DNA of 64,000 nucleotides from an uncultured Planktotalea sp. (lineage in GTDB: Bacteria; Pseudomonadota; Alphaproteobacteria; Rhodobacterales; Rhodobacteraceae): contig CBDUJY010000006.1 of the NCBI GenBank assembly GCA_965367685.1, positions 92,773 through 156,772 of the forward strand, given 5' to 3'. Shown here piece after piece: positions 5,196-44,923 of this stretch (within the stretch, counting starts at the first letter, position 1; each line of letters starts with the position of its first letter). The notes beneath the pieces were generated by a model. It was not told the origin of the DNA, did no database searches, and was given only the letters and a program-made list of their open reading frames with translations. Made by a program: the position numbers and the translations under genes.

Positions 5196-6457
5196 GTGAC
5201 GGCAAACCCACACAGGTGCTGTTGGTGGATGACGACGCGATGGTGCGCGAGGCGTTGGGCCAGACGCTGGATCTTGCGGGTTATCACCCCACGTTGGCGG
5301 GCAGTTATATCGAGGCCAAAGACCACCTGTCTGAGGCGTTCGCGGGCGTCGTGGTCAGCGACATTCGCATGCCCGGAAAAGATGGGTTTCAACTGTTGGA
5401 ACACGCGCAAAAACTGGACGCTGAGCTTCCGGTGATCTTGCTGACAGGCGAGGGTGACATCCCCATGGCCGTGCGCGGCATGAATGCGGGGGCCTTTGAT
5501 TTTCTGGAAAAACCCTGTGACACCACGGCGTTTTTGGCGGTGATTGACCGCGCGATGGAAACGCGGCGGTTGGTGTTGGAAAATCGTGCGCTCAAACGCG
5601 ATGCGCAAAAGGGCGATGCGGCCTCTCGGTTGCTGTTTGGTGAAAGCACACAGGCCGAGGATCTGCGCGCGCGGGTGCGCTCTGTGGCTGCGACCCAAGC
5701 CGAAGTTCTGATCTGTGGCGAGCCGGGGTCCGGCACCGCAAAAGTGGCCGAAGTGGTGCATCTTTTGTCGGGTGTGGCGATGCGCCCGTTTGTGAAACTG
5801 CCTGCTGCTGGTCTAACGTCCGAGGCGCTGAGTGCCGCGTTTGACCGTGCCGAAGGCGGCACATTGTTCTTGGATGAAATCGCCGCCCTTGACGCCTCAA
5901 CCCAGTATACCTTGTTGGATTTGCTAGAGAAATACGGAAGCGCGCGGGTGGTTGTCGGCACCTACCGCGACCTTGCGGGCGAAGTGGAGGTGGGGCGGTT
6001 TAACCCCGACCTCTTTTACAAACTCGACGTTCTGCGCGTGCGCATCCCGGCCATTCGCGAGCGCAAAGATGACATCCCGGTGCTGTTTCGCCATTACGTG
6101 TCGATCGCCAGCGAACAGGCGGCCCTGACCCCGCCCGAGATCAGCCAAGAGGTGATCGGACAGCTGATGGCGCAAGACTGGCCCGGCAATGCGCGCGCGC
6201 TGATGAACACCGCGATGCGCTTTGCGATGGGGCTGGATATTGGGGGGCTGGGGCTTGGCGATATTGAAGAAGGGGACGAGGCGCGCCCGGGCCTTGCCCA
6301 ACAGCTTGCCCAGGTTGAACGCTCGCTTTTGATCGAAGCGCTGCGCCGCCATGCGGGTGGGGCGACGGCCACAGCCAAAGAGCTAAAACTCCCACGCAAG
6401 ACGTTTTACGACAAACTCGCGCGGCATGGGATTAAGGCGGAGGATTATCGGGGGTGA
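5192..6457 (+). CDS. dctD: DctD-like response regulator (receiver + degenerate AAA+ + Fis-type HTH)
   Basis: Start MSDGKPTQVLLVDDD overlaps the dctB stop (ATGA). Receiver motifs are present (DIRMPGKDG). The central domain has GEPGSGTAK and GGTLFLDEI but no ESELFGHxxGAFTGA segment. C-terminal HTH TAKELKLPRKTFYDKLARHGI. Confidence 0.85.
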   Translation: MSDGKPTQVLLVDDDAMVREALGQTLDLAGYHPTLAGSYIEAKDHLSEAFAGVVVSDIRMPGKDGFQLLEHAQKLDAELPVILLTGEGDIPMAVRGMNAGAFDFLEKPCDTTAFLAVIDRAMETRRLVLENRALKRDAQKGDAASRLLFGESTQAEDLRARVRSVAATQAEVLICGEPGSGTAKVAEVVHLLSGVAMRPFVKLPAAGLTSEALSAAFDRAEGGTLFLDEIAALDASTQYTLLDLLEKYGSARVVVGTYRDLAGEVEVGRFNPDLFYKLDVLRVRIPAIRERKDDIPVLFRHYVSIASEQAALTPPEISQEVIGQLMAQDWPGNARALMNTAMRFAMGLDIGGLGLGDIEEGDEARPGLAQQLAQVERSLLIEALRRHAGGATATAKELKLPRKTFYDKLARHGIKAEDYRG

Positions 6458-6594: not shown

Positions 6595-6608
6595 ACTCGT
6601 CTATTCCC

Positions 6609-6626
6609 TGTGCGGAAATCCACTCA
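6609..6626. promoter_or_regulatory. Second, half-degenerate copy TGTGCGGAAATCCACTCA, candidate DctD site 2
   Basis: The left half is identical to site 1. Start-to-start spacing is 32 bp, about three helical turns. Confidence 0.5.
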
Positions 6627-6809
6627 CCTGCTGTTTTTTGATCACCGGTGCCGCAAAAATGGGCAGGTCAAGTCTTTGAAAGAAAATCTTAAATCTCCCA
6701 GATATCGCTAACAAAAACTTGCCCCTTGGTCAGCCCGCCGCCCCATGGCCCAATAGCACCAACATCCGTTTCGGGATGTGGGAAGATATTCTGTCTGGGA
6801 GGACACCAC

Positions 6810-7811
6810 ATGAAATTCCTTACGATGGCCGCATCTGCGCTGGCCCTGACCGTTTCCATGAACGCCGCAACCGCCGCCTGTGATGACGGCGAGATTGTGA
6901 TCAAGTTCAGCCACGTGACCAACGCCGACAAGCACCCCAAAGGGATTGCCGCCAGCCTGCTGTCCGAGCGTGTGAACGCCGAGATGAACGGCAAGGCGTG
7001 TATGGAAGTGTACCCAAACTCGACGCTTTATAATGACAACCAAGTGCTCGAGGCGATGCTGCAGGGCGACGTTCAGATGGCCGCGCCAAGCCTGTCGAAA
7101 TTCGAAGCCTTCACCAAGAAATTCCGCATTTTTGATCTGCCGTTCATGTTCAAAAACATGGATGCTGTGGATGCGTTCCAACAGTCGGAAACTGGTCAGG
7201 CGATGAAAGAAAGCATGACCCGTCGCGGTCTGTTGGGGCTGGCGTTCTGGCACAATGGTCTGAAACAGTTTTCCGCCAACAAACCGCTTGAGCTGCCCAC
7301 GGATGCGGCTGGCCTGAAATTCCGGGTGCAAACCTCGGACGTGCTGGTGGCACAGATGGAAGCAATTGGGGCAAGCCCACAGCCAATGGCGTTTTCCGAA
7401 GTCTACGGTGCGCTGCAAACCGGCGTTGTGGATGGTCAGGAAAACACCTGGTCAAACATCTATGGCAAGAAGTTCTTTGAGGTTCAGGACGGCGTGACCG
7501 AGACCAACCACGGGCTGCTGGATTATCTGGTTGTGACCAATGTGGACTGGTGGGAAGGCCTGCCCGCAGATGTGCGTGACCAGCTGGCCAGCATCATGAA
7601 TGAAGTCACATCGTTCCGCAACGGCGAAGCCTTCGCTGTGAACGAGGCCTCTAAGCAATCGGTCATGGATGCAGGCAGCACCGTGCGCCAGCTGACCGCC
7701 GAACAGCGCGCCGCATGGGTGGCCGCGATGAAACCGGTTTGGTCAAAATTTGAAGGCGACGTGGGTGCTGAAAACATCGAAACGGCGCAAAAAATCAACG
7801 AGATGCACTAA
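6810..7811 (+). CDS. dctP: TRAP transporter substrate-binding protein, DctP family
   Basis: Track ORF 6726..7811 trimmed to MKFLTMAASALALTVSMNAATAA (signal peptide) with a GGGAGG RBS at 6797-6802. Followed by dctQ and dctM. Confidence 0.92.
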   Translation: MKFLTMAASALALTVSMNAATAACDDGEIVIKFSHVTNADKHPKGIAASLLSERVNAEMNGKACMEVYPNSTLYNDNQVLEAMLQGDVQMAAPSLSKFEAFTKKFRIFDLPFMFKNMDAVDAFQQSETGQAMKESMTRRGLLGLAFWHNGLKQFSANKPLELPTDAAGLKFRVQTSDVLVAQMEAIGASPQPMAFSEVYGALQTGVVDGQENTWSNIYGKKFFEVQDGVTETNHGLLDYLVVTNVDWWEGLPADVRDQLASIMNEVTSFRNGEAFAVNEASKQSVMDAGSTVRQLTAEQRAAWVAAMKPVWSKFEGDVGAENIETAQKINEMH

Positions 7812-38214: not shown

Positions 38215-38426
38215 TGCGCCCGACAAGACGCTTATCGAATGTGGCCGTGCCTATTGGGGCGCGGCCATTTTTGTATTGAAACCACAATGCTGGCTGGCTG
38301 ATGCAATCTGCCGCCTATCTTAAATCCACCATAGATTTCCGCCGAAATTCGACCTATGCCTTATGGGACAGCCCAAACCCAGTTTCGGGGGCGGAATGCG
38401 CAGGCAAAAGCAGAAGGATAAGGCTC

Positions 38427-39239
38427 ATGGCGGTAGGGATTTTCGATTCAGGATTGGGCGGATTGACGGTTCTGGATGCGGTGGCCAAGCGTCTGCCGGA
38501 TGTGGATTTCGTCTATTATGCCGACAGTGCCCACGCGCCTTACGGGGTGCGGGATGCGGATAATATCTATGATCTGACCACTCAGGCGGTGTCGGCGCTT
38601 TGGGATCAGGGCTGTGATCTGGTGATTCTGGCCTGTAACACGGCCTCTGCGGCCGCGCTTCGCCGGATGCAGGAAAGCTGGATCCCGTCAGACAAGCGTG
38701 TGCTTGGCGTGTTTGTCCCCCTCATTGAAGCGATGACCGAACGCGATTGGGGCGACAATTCCCCGCCGCGCGAGGTTGAGGTGAAGCATGTGGCCCTGTT
38801 TGCCACCCCCGCCACCGTGTCCAGCCGGGCTTTTCAGCGTGAACTCGCTTTCCGCGCCATTGGTGTGGATGTCGAAGCGCAGGCCTGCGGCGGTGTTGTT
38901 GACGCCATTGAAGACGGTGACATGATCTTGGCGGAAGCCTTGGTGAACAGCCATGTGGATGCTTTGAAACGGAAAATGCCAAACCCGCAGGCGGCCATTT
39001 TGGGTTGCACCCACTACCCGCTGATGGAAAAGGAATTCCAAGCTGCACTGGGGGACGATGTGAAAGTCTTTAGCCAGGCCAATCTTGTTGCTGACAGTTT
39101 GGCCGACTATCTGGATCGCCATCCACAAATGCGCGGCACAGGCGAGGGCAGCAAGTTCCTGACCACCGGAAACCCGGAAAAAGTGTCCAACCGCGCCACC
39201 CAGTTCTTGCGACGAAAGATCACGTTTGAAGCGGCCTGA
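38427..39239 (+). CDS. murI: Glutamate racemase
   Basis: Trimmed to [15 protein letters not shown]. Catalytic Cys motifs LACNTAS and GCTHYP. Confidence 0.92.
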
Positions 39240-39293
39240 TTGAAGACCGCGCGTAAAACCCTTAGATCTTTTAAAACTCGTGAGGAGGTCATG

Positions 39294-40322
39294 ATGACCC
39301 ACAAAATCGCTATTCTTGGCGCGTCTGGTTACACTGGCGCGGAACTTGTTCGGCTGATCGCCACCCATCCGTCGATGGAAATTGTTGCAATGTCCGCTGA
39401 CCGTAAGGCCGGGATGGAGATGGCCGAGGTGTATCCGCATTTGCGTCATCTGGAGCTGCCGACTTTGGTCAAAATGGAGCAGATTGATTTCTCGAACGTG
39501 GATCTGGCCTTTGCGGCCTTGCCCCATGGGTTGTCGCAGGCCTTGGTGCGTGATCTGCCGGAGCATGTGAAAGTGGTCGACCTTGGCGCCGATTTCCGGC
39601 TGCGCGATCCTGCGGAATATGAGAAATGGTACGGCGCGCCCCATGTGGCCACGGAACTGCAAAAAACCGCTGTTTACGGCCTGACCGAGTTTTACCGTGA
39701 AGACATCAGAAACGCACGTTTGGTGGCGGGCACAGGGTGCAACGCGGCCACGGTGCAGTTTGCGCTGAACCCCTTGATTGCCAAGGGCTTGATTGATCTT
39801 GATACGATCATTTGCGACCTGAAAAACGGGCTGTCCGGGGCCGGGCGGTCATTGAAGGAGAACATGCTGTTTGCCGAACGCTCGACCGATGTGATGGGCT
39901 ATGCGCAGGGCGGTAAACACCGGCATTTGGGCGAATTTGATCAAGAGTTCTCAAAGCTTGCGGGCCGTGATGTGCGCATCATCTTCACCCCGCATCTGGT
40001 GCCGGTCAATCGCGGCATTTTGGCGGATTGCTATGTGCGCGGCGATGCGGCTGAAATACACGCGGGACTTGTTGACGCGTATCAAGACGAGCCATTTGTG
40101 ACCGTGCTACCCATGGGGCAAATGCCCGGCATGGGGCAGGTGGCGGGATCGAATCAATGCCATATTGGCGTGGTTGCGGATCGGATTTCGGGGCGCGCGA
40201 TGGTGGTCTCGGCGCTGGATAACTTGTGCAAAGGCTCCTCTGGGCAAGCGATGCAAAACGCGAACCTGATGCTGGGCGAAGATGAAACCACGGGGCTGAT
40301 GTTGGCGCCGATTTTCCCTTAA
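39294..40322 (+). CDS. argC: N-acetyl-gamma-glutamyl-phosphate reductase
   Basis: [21 protein letters not shown]. The GAGGAGG RBS favours the second ATG. GCNATAV active-site region. Confidence 0.92.
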
Positions 40323-40388
40323 GCCCCTTTGGGGGTTGGGATAACTGAAAAGACCCTTTTGACAAGGGATGTGAAAGGAGTGTCCCGG

Positions 40389-40841
40389 ATGGCTGGGATG
40401 AAAAACCTTAAGAAAACGCGCCGCATTCAGGTGATTGTCTTGGCTTTTGTGGCTTTGGCGATCTCAACTGGTTTGATTGGATATGCGCTTCAGGATGGAA
40501 TCAACTATTACCGTTCCCCGACCGAAGTGATTGCGGAACCGCCCGAAGAAAACGAAGTGTTTCGTATGGGGGGGCTGGTGTCCGATGGGTCCATTGTGCG
40601 CGGCCAAAGCGAAACGGTGACCTTTTCGGTGACCGATGGCGGCGAGGTGATTCCGGTCAGCTATAAGGGTGTGTTGCCTGATCTTTTTGGCGAAAACCAA
40701 GGGATGATTGGTACCGGATCATATGTGGACGGCGTGTTTGTGGCCTCGGAAATTCTGGCCAAACATGACGAAAATTACATGCCAAAAGAGGTGCTTGATA
40801 GCCTGAAAGAAACTGGCGTGTATGTGGAACCGACCTCCTGA
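40389..40841 (+). CDS. ccmE: Cytochrome c maturation heme chaperone CcmE
   Basis: AAGGAG RBS 8 nt upstream. N-terminal TM anchor and the heme-binding motif LAKHDENYMPKEV. Confidence 0.92.
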   Translation: MAGMKNLKKTRRIQVIVLAFVALAISTGLIGYALQDGINYYRSPTEVIAEPPEENEVFRMGGLVSDGSIVRGQSETVTFSVTDGGEVIPVSYKGVLPDLFGENQGMIGTGSYVDGVFVASEILAKHDENYMPKEVLDSLKETGVYVEPTS

Positions 40842-40852
40842 TTTCCACAATC

Positions 40853-40867
40853 TTAACGTAATTTAAC
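40853..40867 (+). promoter_or_regulatory. CtrA-like direct repeat TTAAC-N5-TTAAC (TTAA-N6-TTAAC) upstream of the endolysin gene
   Basis: Read directly from the sequence, 40-54 nt upstream of the ATG at 40907. The spacing is one bp shorter than canonical TTAA-N7-TTAA. Confidence 0.3.
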
Positions 40868-40906
40868 CAGCCTTATCCCCGTGTTGAACCGCGGGGAGAG
40901 GCCCGG

Positions 40907-41518
40907 ATGAAAAGCGTTGAAGAGATCGCAGATGAGATCATTGCCCGCGAAGGCGGCTATGTGAACGACCCCAGTGACCCGGGGGGGGCGACCAAATACG
41001 GTGTCACAATCCACACAATGCGCGGGCTTGGGCTTGATCTGACCGGGGACGGAAAGGTCACGACGCAGGACGTCAAGGCGCTAAGCCGCGATCAGGCGCG
41101 CGATATTTTTGTGCGTCACTATTTCAAACGTCCGCGTATCGCCGAACTGCCCCTGCCGCTTCAGGCGACGGTGTTTGATATGTATGTCAATTCTGGCGGC
41201 AATGCGGTGCGAATTTTGCAACGGCTTTTGGGCAAGATGGGCTTTCGCGCGACTGTGGATGGTGCTTTGGGGCCGCAAAGCCTGGCGGCTGCAAGATTGG
41301 CCCATGCGGCGGCACCGGACCATCTGGCGGATGCTTACGGGATCGAGCGGCGCAATTACTATTACCGGTTGGCCGATCAACGCACCGCCTCGCGCAAATA
41401 TGCGCGGCGCAAGGATGGCGGCAAGGGGGGATGGATCCGCCGGGCCGAGGAATTCATTGCGCCCAAATATCATTTTTCCAACAAAGAACACCGTGAGAGG
41501 GTCGCGAAATGGGGATAA
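40907..41518 (+). CDS. GH108-family muramidase with C-terminal peptidoglycan-binding domain (phage/GTA-type endolysin)
   Basis: 203 aa. N-terminal AREGGYVNDPSDPGGATKYGVT (GH108 signature with the catalytic Glu in EGGY) followed by a PG_binding_3-like region (LQRLLGKMGFRATVDGALGPQSL). GGAGAG RBS. Confidence 0.8.
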   Translation: MKSVEEIADEIIAREGGYVNDPSDPGGATKYGVTIHTMRGLGLDLTGDGKVTTQDVKALSRDQARDIFVRHYFKRPRIAELPLPLQATVFDMYVNSGGNAVRILQRLLGKMGFRATVDGALGPQSLAAARLAHAAAPDHLADAYGIERRNYYYRLADQRTASRKYARRKDGGKGGWIRRAEEFIAPKYHFSNKEHRERVAKWG

Positions 41519-42114
41519 TAGGATCACTTTTCAACATTCTCTTTGGGGGCGGGCGCAATGTGATCCGTGACACCGCAGAGGTGTTTGTGGAAAACCGCGA
41601 GGCGGGCGCCCTGCGCGATGTGGATCTGCACCGCGCCACGTTAGAGGCTTACGCCGCTGAATTTATGCACCCCCAGAAAGGGATGTTTGATCGGTTTATG
41701 GATGGCCTTAATCGGCTGCCGCGTCCGGCGTTGGCCTTGGGCACATTGGGGTTGTTCACGGCGGCGATGGTGGACCCCATTTGGTTCTCGGCCCGGATGC
41801 AGGGGATATCGCTTGTACCGGACCCCTTGTGGTGGCTGCTTGGCGCCATTGTCAGTTTTTATTTTGGCGCGCGACATCAGGCCAAAGGGCAGGATTTTCA
41901 ACGCTCTATCGCCACAACCTTGTCGCGCACGGATGAGGTGCGGCGCAATATCGAGGGGCTGACCGGGCAGGAGACCACAGATCAAAGCCAACCGGTTTAT
42001 GCGCCGCTTTCTTTACGTGCAGCCCCCGCCCCTCAGGCCCAACCCGTCGATACCACAGGCAATGCAGCACTTGTGGCGTGGGTTAAGTCGCGGGGGCGCA
42101 CAGGTGGGCAGTGA
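41509..42114 (+). CDS. Holin, '3TM holin for gene-transfer release' type
   Basis: 201 aa. The start overlaps the endolysin stop by 10 nt. N-terminal IIGSLFNILFGGG, RLPRPALALGTLGLFTAAMV and DPLWWLLGAIVSFYFG helices, then a long hydrophilic tail. Confidence 0.65.
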   Translation: MGIIGSLFNILFGGGRNVIRDTAEVFVENREAGALRDVDLHRATLEAYAAEFMHPQKGMFDRFMDGLNRLPRPALALGTLGLFTAAMVDPIWFSARMQGISLVPDPLWWLLGAIVSFYFGARHQAKGQDFQRSIATTLSRTDEVRRNIEGLTGQETTDQSQPVYAPLSLRAAPAPQAQPVDTTGNAALVAWVKSRGRTGGQ

Positions 42115-42298
42115 TTTGATTTTGAAACTGGTGTCCGAACACGGGCCTTGGGTTTTGTTGGTGTTTTACCTTCTGTACCGCGATTTTCAGAAAGATCAGG
42201 CAACGCGGGCAGTGCTGGATAAAAACTCATCCATCCTGATTGAGATCACCACAATCATTCGCGAACGCTTGCCAGCCGGCGGAGGGCGGGGCCGATGA
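42104..42298 (+). CDS. Hypothetical small single-pass membrane protein (about 60-64 aa)
   Basis: GTG at 42104 (or TTG at 42116) overlaps the holin stop. One TM (GPWVLLVFYLLY) and a helical tail. The stop overlaps the next ATG (ATGA). Confidence 0.5.
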   Translation: MGSDLILKLVSEHGPWVLLVFYLLYRDFQKDQATRAVLDKNSSILIEITTIIRERLPAGGGRGR

Positions 42299-42420
42299 TT
42301 TGGTTTTTTGAAATGGTGAAAGAGCTGATTTCGAACGCACAGCTGCGCCGATCAGTGGAACGAAACCAAAAGGCCGCGGCAGAGTTGGATGCGGTCGTGC
42401 GAGAGGTCTTGCAGGAATGA
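42295..42420 (+). CDS. Hypothetical 41-aa protein (MIWFFEMVKELISNAQLRRSVERNQKAAAELDAVVREVLQE)
   Basis: My own translation. ATGA overlaps at both ends tie it to the neighbouring ORFs. Too short for the ORF track. Confidence 0.4.
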   Translation: MIWFFEMVKELISNAQLRRSVERNQKAAAELDAVVREVLQE

Positions 42421-42839
42421 AACAGGCATTTGTGTTGATGATGTTGATCGCGCTGCTGTTGCAGGCGGGGTATCAATGGGCTGGCTATGATGTGGTCTAT
42501 CAAATTGGCTATGGGGCGATCACGCTGATGGGGCTGATGATCTCGCTGACATTCCTGTGGCTTTACGTGGTGCGCGCAACGCCCCTGGCACTTGGAATGG
42601 CCTACAGCTGGTCGGGGGCCAGCCTTGTTGTGGGGTGGTGGTGGATCTATTCGCTGTTGGGGGAACCCGCTTGGGCGGCGGAAAGCCCGGCGCATTTTGT
42701 GTTTGTGGCGCTTTATTTGGTTGGTGCTTTGCTACACTTTTCTGTGATCAATCGGTCGTTCGGCTGGCATGGGGCCATGTTTTTATGGCCCGTGCTAGGG
42801 GCGCTTGTTCTTTCTAGCTTGATTTACATCATGACTTGA
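42417..42839 (+). CDS. Hypothetical polytopic membrane protein (140 aa, about 4-5 TM)
   Basis: Track ORF. Trp/Tyr-rich TM helices (SLVVGWWWIYSLLG). I recognise no family. Last gene of the overlapping cassette. Confidence 0.6.
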   Translation: MKQAFVLMMLIALLLQAGYQWAGYDVVYQIGYGAITLMGLMISLTFLWLYVVRATPLALGMAYSWSGASLVVGWWWIYSLLGEPAWAAESPAHFVFVALYLVGALLHFSVINRSFGWHGAMFLWPVLGALVLSSLIYIMT

Positions 42840-42952
42840 CGGTGTGACTTGGTAAATAAGGGCGCAAACGGAATGAAAAGGCCGTGACTGGTTGCCGCAT
42901 CAATGACGCGGGGGGCTGGTCGGCCCCGGCGATAAGGACTAGACTTCGCGTC

Positions 42953-44923
42953 ATGATTACCGAGCTTGGACATTTTGCGCTGATCTTAGCGCTGGGCGTG
43001 GCACTGATCCAGATGATCGTGCCACTGATTGGGGCGCATAAAGGCTGGCGTGGCTGGATGGAGATGGCGGTTCCTGCCGCCTCTCTTCAATTTGCGCTGA
43101 TTGCCGCGGCATTCGCGGCGCTGACTTATGCGTTTGTAACTTCTGACTTCTCGTTGAAATTGGTGTATTTCAACTCTCACAGCGACAAGCCGATGCTTTA
43201 CAAAGTGTCGGGCGTTTGGGGCAACCACGAAGGCTCTATGCTGTTGTGGGTGCTGATTGTGGCGCTGTTTGGCGCGATGGCCGCGTGGTTTGGTGGCAAT
43301 CTGCCGCTGCGCCTTAAGGCCCGCGTGCTGGCGGTGCAAAGCGCCATTGGGGCGGCGTTCTTGGCCTTTGTGATCTTTACATCAAACCCGTTTTTGCGCC
43401 TTGCGCAGCCACCGTTTGATGGCCGGGATTTGAACCCGCTGTTGCAAGACGTGGGCCTCGCCTTCCACCCCCCCTTTCTTTACCTCGGCTATGTTGGCCT
43501 TTCGATGACCTTCAGTTTTGCCGTTGCGGCGCTGATCGAAGGGCGCATTGATGCCGCTTGGGGCCGTTGGGTGCGCCCCTGGACCTTGGCCGCCTGGGTC
43601 TTTTTGACCATCGGCATCGGCCTTGGATCTTGGTGGGCGTATTACGAGCTGGGCTGGGGCGGGTTCTGGTTCTGGGACCCGGTTGAAAACGCGTCCTTTA
43701 TGCCTTGGCTTTTTGCCGCCGCTTTGTTGCATTCGGCCATTGTGGTTGAGAAACGGGAATCGCTGAAAAGCTGGACAATCCTGCTTGCGATCCTTGCGTT
43801 TGGCTTCTCGCTCATCGGGACCTTCTTGGTGCGTTCAGGCGTGATCACCTCGGTGCATGCGTTTGCCTCTGATCCCGAACGCGGCGTGTTTATCTTGGCC
43901 ATTCTTGCGGTCTTCACCGGCGGGGCGCTGACGCTTTTTGCCGCGCGCGCAAGCGCGATGGAGGCACGTGGTGTCTTTGGCCTTGTCAGTCGCGAAAGTG
44001 CGCTGGTGGTCAACAATATCCTTTTGGCGGTTGGGTCCATTGTGGTCTTTATCGGCACCATCTGGCCGCTGATTGGCGAGATTTTTGAACGCAAAGTCTC
44101 GGTTGGTGCGCCGTTTTTTAACGCGGCGTTTATCCCCTTTATGGTGGTTTTGGCGCTGGTGTTGCCCGTCGGGGCAATGTTGCCGTGGAAACGGGCGAAA
44201 GTGAAACGGGCCGCCAAGCAATTGATCCCGGCGTTTGCCTTGGCGATTGCGGTGTTGGCTTTGGTTTGGGCGATGCAAACCGGGCGCTCTGCTTTGGGGC
44301 CGATTGGGATGTTCCTTGGCACATGGCTGGTGGCAGGTTCACTGACCGATCTTGCGGGCCGGACCGGGCGGGGCGCGATTTCGAACCGTTTGTCACGGCT
44401 GACCCGCCTGCCTCGTGCAGATTGGGGTAAGTTCACCGCGCATGTGGGGCTTGGGATCACCATTATGGGCATCGCCGGGCTTGAGGCTTGGCAGCACGAA
44501 GATATTCGTGTGACCCAGCTGAACGACCCGTTTGAAGTGGCCGGATATACGGTGACCTTGGAAAATGTGTACCGCGAACAGGGCCCCAACTATACCACCA
44601 CAATGGCGGATATGCGGGTGGAACGGGGCGGCGAAACGGTTGCGCTTCTGCATCCCGAAAAACGCGTCTATCCCGTGCAAGCCATGCCCACAACCGAGGC
44701 CGCGATTGCCAATGGGTTCTGGCGCGATATCTATGTTGTGATCGGCGATCCACAGGACAATGGCGGTTGGGCGGTTCGCACCTTTATCAAACCGTTTGCC
44801 AACTGGATCTGGGCTGGGTGCATTATCATGTCACTGGGTGGGTTGATCAGCTTGTCTGACCGGCGCTTCCGGGTGGCTGCTGGTGCGGCCAAAGCCCCAA
44901 AACAAGGGGTGCCTGCGGAATGA
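42953..44923 (+). CDS. ccmF: Cytochrome c heme lyase subunit CcmF
   Basis: Trimmed to MITELGHFALILALGVAL. WWD motif WGGFWFWDPVENASFMPW. About 656 aa. Confidence 0.93.
   Translation: MITELGHFALILALGVALIQMIVPLIGAHKGWRGWMEMAVPAASLQFALIAAAFAALTYAFVTSDFSLKLVYFNSHSDKPMLYKVSGVWGNHEGSMLLWVLIVALFGAMAAWFGGNLPLRLKARVLAVQSAIGAAFLAFVIFTSNPFLRLAQPPFDGRDLNPLLQDVGLAFHPPFLYLGYVGLSMTFSFAVAALIEGRIDAAWGRWVRPWTLAAWVFLTIGIGLGSWWAYYELGWGGFWFWDPVENASFMPWLFAAALLHSAIVVEKRESLKSWTILLAILAFGFSLIGTFLVRSGVITSVHAFASDPERGVFILAILAVFTGGALTLFAARASAMEARGVFGLVSRESALVVNNILLAVGSIVVFIGTIWPLIGEIFERKVSVGAPFFNAAFIPFMVVLALVLPVGAMLPWKRAKVKRAAKQLIPAFALAIAVLALVWAMQTGRSALGPIGMFLGTWLVAGSLTDLAGRTGRGAISNRLSRLTRLPRADWGKFTAHVGLGITIMGIAGLEAWQHEDIRVTQLNDPFEVAGYTVTLENVYREQGPNYTTTMADMRVERGGETVALLHPEKRVYPVQAMPTTEAAIANGFWRDIYVVIGDPQDNGGWAVRTFIKPFANWIWAGCIIMSLGGLISLSDRRFRVAAGAAKAPKQGVPAE

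Follow-up and report, generated by a model that had tools for sequence, protein, structure and literature searches.

Three small genes coupled to the holin gene extend the gene transfer agent lysis operon of many Rhodobacterales: a candidate accessory lysis-control module

Introduction

In a 64,000-nt stretch of contig CBDUJY010000006.1, from an uncultured Planktotalea sp. (the window, to which all positions refer), the lysis operon of a gene transfer agent (GTA) continues beyond its endolysin and holin genes into three small open reading frames (ORFs): ORF1 (42104–42298, + strand, 64 aa), ORF2 (42295–42420, + strand, 41 aa) and ORF3 (42417–42839, + strand, 140 aa). This trio is a conserved extension of the operon, chained by overlapping stop and start codons to the gene for the PF11351 holin, and it has been inherited with that holin over a deep divergence within the Rhodobacterales. 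On the basis of gene context and protein architecture we propose, with moderate confidence, that the trio is an accessory inner-membrane module that modulates the GTA holin in the manner of a co-holin or antiholin.

Lysis of the type found for the Rhodobacter capsulatus GTA (RcGTA) has been described as a matter of an endolysin and a holin only, with no spanin (PMC5026251, PMC13236601); the initial annotation of the window, made from the sequence alone, had said the same. In R. capsulatus the PF11351 protein is needed for release (PMC5026251). Hynes et al. placed rcc00555–rcc00556 between cycJ and, downstream, a heme-lyase gene, although the latter was the immediate neighbour in no more than 12 of 19 genomes and the intervening sequence was not discussed (PMC5026251). 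The locus described here is the RcGTA lysis locus: it has the same endolysin and holin families at the same site, between cycJ/ccmE and ccmF. It differs from the published pair of genes by the trio, an addition that is not treated in PMC5026251. Literature searches on GTA spanins, on PF11351 and on GTAs in the genera that carry the trio found no mention of these ORFs, and public annotations list the trio proteins as hypothetical proteins.

Results

ORF1–ORF3 are coupled to the holin gene across the Rhodobacterales

The holin gene of the window ends in a TGA at 42112–42114 and is overlapped by 11 nt by ORF1, which starts with GTG; ORF2 and ORF3 each begin at an ATGA overlap with the gene before them. 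The initial annotation had described the three ORFs as chained to the holin and to each other in this way, and both the coordinates and the overlaps were confirmed. Most relatives carry ATG where the window has GTG, which fixes the position of the ORF1 start; one of them is the closest relative, L001, whose endolysin is 98% identical.

Conservation of the ORFs and their co-occurrence with the endolysin/holin pair were then borne out in 80 Rhodobacterales loci, fetched with the endolysin as query and limited to one genome per species. Of the 80, 41 have all three ORFs, immediately behind the holin gene and in unchanged order, and in nearly all trio loci the overlaps were −11 or −4 nt between holin and ORF1, then −4 nt, then −4 nt. 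In locus L057, ORF1 and ORF2 are followed not by ORF3 but by an unrelated ORF of 56 aa (7454–7624 of that locus) that contains two hydrophobic segments. Two of the 80 loci end at a contig edge. The trio is missing from 36 informative loci, in which the holin gene is next to ccmF, the spacing ranging from −20 to +565 nt; because these loci do without it, the trio is an accessory and not a required step.

Pairwise Nei–Gojobori dN/dS values were 0.14 for ORF1, 0.43 for ORF2 and 0.30 for ORF3, as compared with 0.24 for the holin, making ORF1 more constrained than the PF11351 holin itself, and the third codon position was the most variable one in each of the three ORFs. Both measures, which the initial annotation had put forward as checks, indicate purifying selection and hence that ORF1–ORF3 are all protein-coding. 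Shine–Dalgarno-like motifs were found 5′ of the start of ORF1 in 30 of 43 loci, of ORF2 in 40 of 43 and of ORF3 in 38 of 42 (the window counted). The motif for ORF2 is encoded in the Gly-rich C-terminus of ORF1, and that for ORF3 in the last codons of ORF2, at its conserved ‘…REVL’ end. ORF2 has been annotated by public gene callers in L081–L084, L101 and L102.

The association of the trio is with the holin gene rather than with ccmF, which follows it in the window. In Maritimibacter, Sinisalibacter and various metagenome-assembled genomes (MAGs), 0.6–2.7 kb separates ORF3 from ccmF, and the trio is still joined to the holin gene. The most divergent ORF3 homologues looked up (P0103, P0105 and P0106) all lie in loci of the order endolysin–PF11351 holin–small ORF–small ORF–ORF3, and further ORF1 homologues (P0281 and P0283) likewise lie in endolysin–PF11351 holin–trio loci; every homologue context examined placed the trio directly after the GTA holin. 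As the linkage to the holin is both tight and exclusive, a role in the lysis cassette is the most economical reading.

In a CcmF-based tree the trio occurs throughout the Aliiroseovarius/Maritimibacter/Sinisalibacter/Celeribacter group and also in a second clade (Silicimonas, Boseongicola and MAGs), whereas Sulfitobacter, Marinosulfonomonas, Amylibacter, Paracoccus and Gemmobacter lack it. Such a distribution points to a long history of vertical descent in which the trio was lost or gained at least once.

Two features of individual loci were recorded in the course of this comparison. The inserts between ORF3 and ccmF hold one or two minus-strand genes with products of ∼150–220 aa (L026, L029, L031, L032, L038, L054, L068, L028, L056, L050 and L006; hosts Maritimibacter, Sinisalibacter and some Aliiroseovarius), and these proteins look like outer-membrane β-barrels, given their signal peptides and the aromatic residue at their C-terminus. 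In L055 (Celeribacter sp. HF31, 6603–7190) the holin frame closes at 6956, while similarity to the holin runs on to ∼7190, 235 nt before ORF1; this break may reflect a frameshift or an assembly error.

ORF1–ORF3 lack matches to recognized families

None of the three products gave a meaningful match in Pfam, PHROGs or NCBIfam, and the PADLOC defence models returned zero matches at E ≤ 1 for the holin or ORF1–ORF3; the impression of the initial annotation that the ORFs belong to no recognized family thus held up. Sequence-profile searches of the PDB yielded nothing meaningful. A known anti-phage defence system was rejected as an identity for the trio in view of the PADLOC result. Searches by tblastn with ORF1, ORF3 and the holin against 50,697 GenBank phages found no match, nor did scans of IMG/VR with the ORF1 and ORF3 profiles, and a phage origin of the trio was rejected on these grounds. 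As judged from these comparisons, ORF1–ORF3 are three new small protein families.

No other protein of the cassette is as conserved as ORF1, in which 18 residues are invariant among 24 sequences. A profile search at E ≤ 0.1 retrieved 837 database proteins, of which the 120 listed are 59–78 aa long and bear no functional name except for three UniRef ‘YvrJ family’ labels, which scans with Pfam and NCBIfam did not reproduce. The AlphaFold2 (AF2) model (predicted local distance difference test, pLDDT, 74) comprises a short amphipathic helix (residues 2–13) and a long helix (residues 16–55), separated by an invariant Gly-Pro kink, and the hydrophobic core is just ∼10–11 residues long, at the start of the long helix after the kink. 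Lysine and arginine together average 0.7 residues on the N-terminal flank and 4.2 in the 15 aa after the anchor. Because this charge is low before and high after the anchor, the protein is predicted to lie N-out/C-in with its helical tail, of ∼38 aa, in the cytoplasm. The i-spanin-like topology proposed in the initial annotation is contradicted both by this predicted orientation and by the length of the tail. ORF1 is predicted to be a membrane anchor with a cytoplasmic helical tail.

Homologues of ORF2, of 39–59 aa, fill the same slot in 42 loci. All three ORFs had been taken for membrane proteins, a description that suits the ORF1 anchor and ORF3 but not ORF2: its family is without a transmembrane segment, and the longest hydrophobic run is usually 4–5 residues. 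ORF2 relatives have a variable, basic, amphipathic N-terminal half, the first 16 aa carrying an average net charge of +3, followed by a near-invariant Gly and a conserved C-terminal helix, ‘…RN..AA.ELD..VREVL.K’. The hydrophobic ‘MIWFFEMV’ head on which the earlier description rested is present in the window but is specific to its lineage. The window copy has a net charge of −1 (counted from the sequence) and hence is not cationic. ORF2 is predicted to be a small helical protein of the cytoplasm, either soluble or peripheral to the membrane.

A word-based search found 109 homologues of ORF3, nearly all of 140 aa and none functionally annotated. Their alignment has 19 invariant columns and the motifs TFLWL…R.TPLALGM..SW…GWWW and GA.LHF. 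The ORF3 profile matched only 69 of 1.84 × 10⁹ representative proteins, all from one small family and none CcmF-like. The protein is Trp-rich and has an invariant membrane-embedded His. AF2 models it as a five-helix bundle with high scores (pLDDT 96.1; predicted template modelling score, pTM, 0.82), which settles on the upper figure of the four to five transmembrane segments first suggested, and Foldseek found no significant neighbour of this model in either the PDB or BFVD (best E 0.74 and 0.1, respectively). From the charges of its loops, ORF3 is predicted to be an inner-membrane protein oriented N-in/C-out, in which the two most conserved loops (R53-T-P-L and R-S-F-G-x-H-G) would be cytoplasmic and an acidic loop 3, of no more than ∼14 aa, periplasmic.

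ORF1 shares its architecture with BhlA, and the slot after the holin is variable

A single hint recurred in the family searches, and it concerned ORF1. The window ORF1 matched Holin_BhlA (PF10960) at 14 bits (E 0.05), below the gathering score of 22.6, and such sub-threshold matches occurred in 13 of 24 ORF1 members (best E 0.014). The ORF1 profile was compared by hhalign with an alignment of 11 sequences, SPbeta YomB (BhlA) and ten phage homologues, giving a probability of 41% (P 2.7 × 10⁻⁴) over 25 columns that cover the transmembrane domain (TMD) only. Both proteins are of 60–70 aa, with an acidic N-terminus, a kinked hydrophobic anchor ‘GP(F/W)xxL(F/V)xxLL’ and a charged helical tail, and the genes for both adjoin holin and lysin genes; in five of nine annotated phage BhlA loci a gene annotated as holin and/or lysin is the immediate neighbour of the BhlA gene. 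ORF1 therefore has the layout of a BhlA-type protein (∼70 aa, N-terminal single anchor, charged helical tail, gene beside holin/lysin). Nevertheless, the tails are unrelated, and the hosts of ORF1 are Gram-negative Alphaproteobacteria whereas BhlA and XhlA come from Bacillus prophages. Because the hhalign probability was 41% and the match covered just the kinked anchor, we conclude that the architecture is shared and that homology to BhlA is undemonstrated.

Other small membrane proteins occupy the position after the GTA holin in some relatives. L045 encodes there a 67-aa XhlA-family protein (7093–7296; PF10779, 34.8 bits against a cut-off of 34.7), and L048 an unrelated multi-TM ORF of ∼135–145 aa (7144–7581). 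Together with the 56-aa ORF of L057, these cases indicate that the position acts as a variable accessory slot of the kind seen in phage lysis cassettes.

Gene order at the lysis locus and the endolysin leader

The gene order of the region starts with murI (38301–39239) and argC (39240–40322), followed by ccmE (cycJ; 40329–40841, + strand; Pfam PF03100, 6.2 × 10⁻³¹), the conserved flank 5′ of the lysis locus. The GTA endolysin gene (40907–41518, + strand) opens the lysis operon. Its product has GH108 and PG_binding_3 domains (Pfam PF05838, 1.8 × 10⁻²⁶; PF09374, 1.2 × 10⁻²²) and matches NCBIfam NF040573, ‘holin-associated N-acetylmuramidase’ (1.7 × 10⁻¹⁰⁶), and PHROG 315, endolysin; the closest endolysins, 97–98% identical, are those of Aliiroseovarius lamellibrachiae and a related MAG, and from this the window was assigned to an Aliiroseovarius chromosome. 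The start of the holin gene (41509–42114, + strand) overlaps the endolysin stop. The holin belongs to GTA_holin_3TM: it scores 93.4 bits against PF11351 (cut-off 24.8), its gene adjoins that of the GH108 endolysin and the locus is flanked by ccmE and ccmF. By family and by position between ccmE and ccmF, it is the homologue of R. capsulatus rcc00556 (PMC5026251).

Downstream of the trio lies the heme-lyase gene ccmF (42954–44923, + strand; Pfam PF01578 and PF16327), and ccmH follows ccmF. The longest ccmF ORF begins at a GTG at 42884; the true start is likely to be the ATG at 42954, where the conserved N-terminus MITELGHFAL… and the alignments to relatives begin. The 114 nt between ORF3 and this ATG are the probable site of the ccmF promoter. 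Where the trio is missing, only a few nucleotides part the holin stop from the ccmF start, and this close spacing poses a puzzle as to how transcription of the housekeeping gene ccmF is kept independent of the lysis genes.

Directly 5′ of the endolysin start, positions 40862–40906 form a stable hairpin (CCCCGTG-ttgaac-CGCGGGG-agagg; minimum free energy −22.6 kcal/mol over 45 nt) whose 3′ arm runs into the Shine–Dalgarno sequence. In 80 related loci the hairpin position is the 45 nt before the endolysin ATG (∼5956–6000 in most). Folding of each of 81 sequences gave a median z of −3.4 relative to mononucleotide shuffles, with 75% of the sequences below −2. The arms vary by lineage yet remain self-complementary, as in CCTCGC…GCGAGG and CTTACCG…CGGTAAG; RNAalifold on a MAFFT alignment of the endolysin 5′ leader recovered no consensus structure. 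The hairpin may serve as an insulator or as a translational control element for a lethal lysis operon downstream of ccmE. The leader also contains, at 40856–40872, the element cTTAACgtaatTTAACc (TTAA-N6-TTAA), ∼50 nt upstream of the endolysin ATG, which we take to resemble a CtrA-type half-site. Most of 79 related loci have a TTAAC or GTTAAC half-site about as far from the ATG (judged by eye, uncounted), but the full TTAA-N6/7-TTAA pattern is present in only 15 of the 79.

Discussion

We have described three genes that are joined to the GTA holin gene and kept under purifying selection with it. If they act on the holin, a mechanism can be outlined as follows. Through translational coupling, the holin and the trio products would be made side by side, probably at a fixed ratio. 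ORF1, as a BhlA-like single anchor, and ORF3, with five transmembrane helices and conserved cytoplasmic loops, would be neighbours of the holin in the inner membrane, to whose cytoplasmic face the small, basic and helical ORF2 would bind. The trio could then set when, or how robustly, the holin triggers, a timing control of the co-holin or antiholin type, with the outcome that the rare GTA-producing cell lyses only once particles are assembled. Its products would not themselves breach the outer membrane. Because many relatives are without the trio, it would modulate lysis and is probably not essential for hole formation. Among known kinds of system, the trio is best classed with the phage-type lysis cassette that carries accessory membrane proteins.

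Antiholins and other holin regulators, a functional class that includes T4 RI/RIII, ICP1 ArrA, P2 LysA and lambda S107, bind the holin and delay or modulate its triggering. Two phage systems offer parallels. TeaA of phage ICP1 has been assigned to PF11351 by remote homology, and an antiholin with a TMD, ArrA, which delays lysis, is encoded adjacent to it (PMC7182436). Here, too, a holin attributed to the same Pfam family is accompanied by neighbouring genes for small TMD proteins: ORF138 of ICP1 (151 aa, several hydrophobic segments), which from the numbering in PMC7182436 is presumed to be ArrA, parallels ORF3 in architecture, and ORF139 (114 aa, an N-terminal hydrophobic segment and a charged helical tail) parallels ORF1. 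The gene order differs, however, and lysis inhibition in ICP1 responds to superinfection, for which there is no obvious GTA counterpart. LysA of phage P2 (141 aa, polytopic by inspection of its sequence) matches ORF3 in size and in position, in a lysis cassette after holin and endolysin, and its gene is annotated as ‘nonessential; affects timing of lysis’; P2 differs in carrying the LysB/LysC spanins, which are absent at the trio locus. Homology to the ICP1 and P2 proteins was rejected, hhalign probabilities being 0.4% for ORF3 and ORF138, 0.1% for ORF1 and ORF139, and 0.25% for ORF3 and P2 LysA.

Several points weigh against a holin-modulating role. The comparisons of the trio with proven holin regulators revealed no sequence or fold homology (hhalign ≤ 0.4%, and 41% for BhlA over the TMD alone). 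The proposed regulation draws on gene adjacency and coupling and on predicted topologies, and guilt by association of this kind would fit a function outside lysis as well. Housekeeping ccm genes enclose the locus on both sides, and neither a promoter nor a terminator could be defined around ORF3, consensus-scan counts being not above the expectation from shuffled sequence. Finally, lineages without the trio presumably lyse normally, so that its contribution could be subtle.

The initial annotation had raised the possibility that the trio completes GTA lysis; in this reading it would supply the missing outer-membrane step, as a non-canonical substitute for spanins or disruptin. This would answer to the lack of a described spanin in GTA lysis (PMC5026251, PMC13236601), to the single anchor and helical tail of ORF1, and to the small, basic and amphipathic character of the ORF2 family; the trio genes also lie where phage cassettes usually have spanins, for example lysB/lysC in P2. 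Nevertheless, when 42 loci were scanned for lipoboxes in every forward frame, beginning at the holin start codon and continuing until 150 nt beyond ORF3, no conserved ORF with a lipoprotein signal emerged, and the only matches, sporadic and non-homologous, came from four loci, in agreement with the initial remark that no lipobox Cys for an o-spanin is visible. Canonical two-component spanins need such an outer-membrane lipoprotein (the o-spanin), and the periplasmic domains of spanins are far longer than the ∼38 aa of the ORF1 tail, which is moreover predicted to be cytoplasmic and would be too short to span the periplasm. Almost nothing of ORF3 would be exposed there either, its periplasmic loop being ≤ ∼14 aa, and ORF2 has neither a signal peptide nor a TMD, with a net charge of −1 in the window. 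Together with the 36 informative loci without the trio, these data speak against the proposal, which we regard as very unlikely. Two spanin forms were rejected individually. The two-component spanin of the lambda Rz/Rz1 type was rejected for want of a conserved lipobox ORF for the o-spanin, whose gene adjoins, overlaps or lies within that of the i-spanin, and given a predicted N-out/C-in ORF1 with a short tail where an i-spanin is N-in/C-out and has a long periplasmic coiled coil. The unimolecular spanin of the T1 gp11 type, which combines an N-terminal lipoprotein signal and a C-terminal TMD, was rejected given that ORF1–ORF3 have no lipobox and that the anchor of ORF1 is N-terminal.

The position between ccmE and ccmF suggests a different account, in which the trio is unrelated to lysis and forms a cytochrome c maturation-linked or other envelope membrane module that merely shares the insertion site. 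The Trp-rich ORF3 with its invariant membrane His superficially recalls heme-handling proteins, weak tblastn matches of ORF3 (E ∼0.1–0.3) fall in the WWD/TM-His region of CcmF, and no terminator is detectable between ORF3 and ccmF. Against this, hhalign of the ORF3 profile with a CcmF alignment gave a probability of 0.3%, no Ccm protein was among the 69 profile matches, and Pfam found nothing; the idea that ORF3 is a fragment of CcmF/CcmC (PF01578) was rejected on the hhalign and profile results. The trio also overlaps the holin stop codon and remains with the holin when parted from ccmF, whereas Sulfitobacter, Paracoccus, Amylibacter and others keep ccmE and ccmF without it. A function outside lysis therefore seems to us improbable. 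Within lysis, ORF1 might itself be a second pore-forming holin, BhlA- or pinholin-like, in a two-holin system in which ORF2 and ORF3 would regulate ORF1 and not the PF11351 protein. BhlA-type proteins are toxic to membranes when expressed, and the sub-threshold Holin_BhlA matches in 13 of 24 ORF1 members, the GP-kinked N-terminal anchor with charged helical tail common to ORF1 and BhlA, and the stronger constraint on ORF1 than on the PF11351 holin would all fit. However, the hydrophobic core has only ∼10 residues, homology between ORF1 and BhlA is unproven, and release in R. capsulatus needs the PF11351 protein (PMC5026251); we consider a second holin unlikely.

The holin-modulating module that we favour also admits a more far-reaching version, which we put forward as a speculation with a small chance of being correct. 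The trio may be a host-evolved, GTA-specific ‘safety catch’ without a phage counterpart, a three-protein inner-membrane complex built on an unseen fold of five transmembrane helices. Such a complex would couple holin triggering, through the invariant membrane His, the Trp cluster and the cytoplasmic loops of ORF3, to a cellular signal such as membrane energization, redox state or particle completion. It would then represent a new class of lysis regulator that arose in the domestication of the GTA and not from the ancestral phage.

GTA release has been described as a two-gene, holin–endolysin process. Three extra conserved genes are joined to the holin gene in a large share of marine Rhodobacterales (Aliiroseovarius, Maritimibacter, Celeribacter, Sinisalibacter, Silicimonas and many MAGs). 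What is new here is three protein families, including a confidently modelled fold of five transmembrane helices without a structural neighbour, and a slot after the GTA holin that varies between lineages and recruits different small membrane proteins, an XhlA-family protein among them. Should the trio turn out to play no part in lysis, the correction to how this widely conserved locus is annotated would stand. For researchers working on GTAs and on phage lysis, the trio provides concrete candidates.

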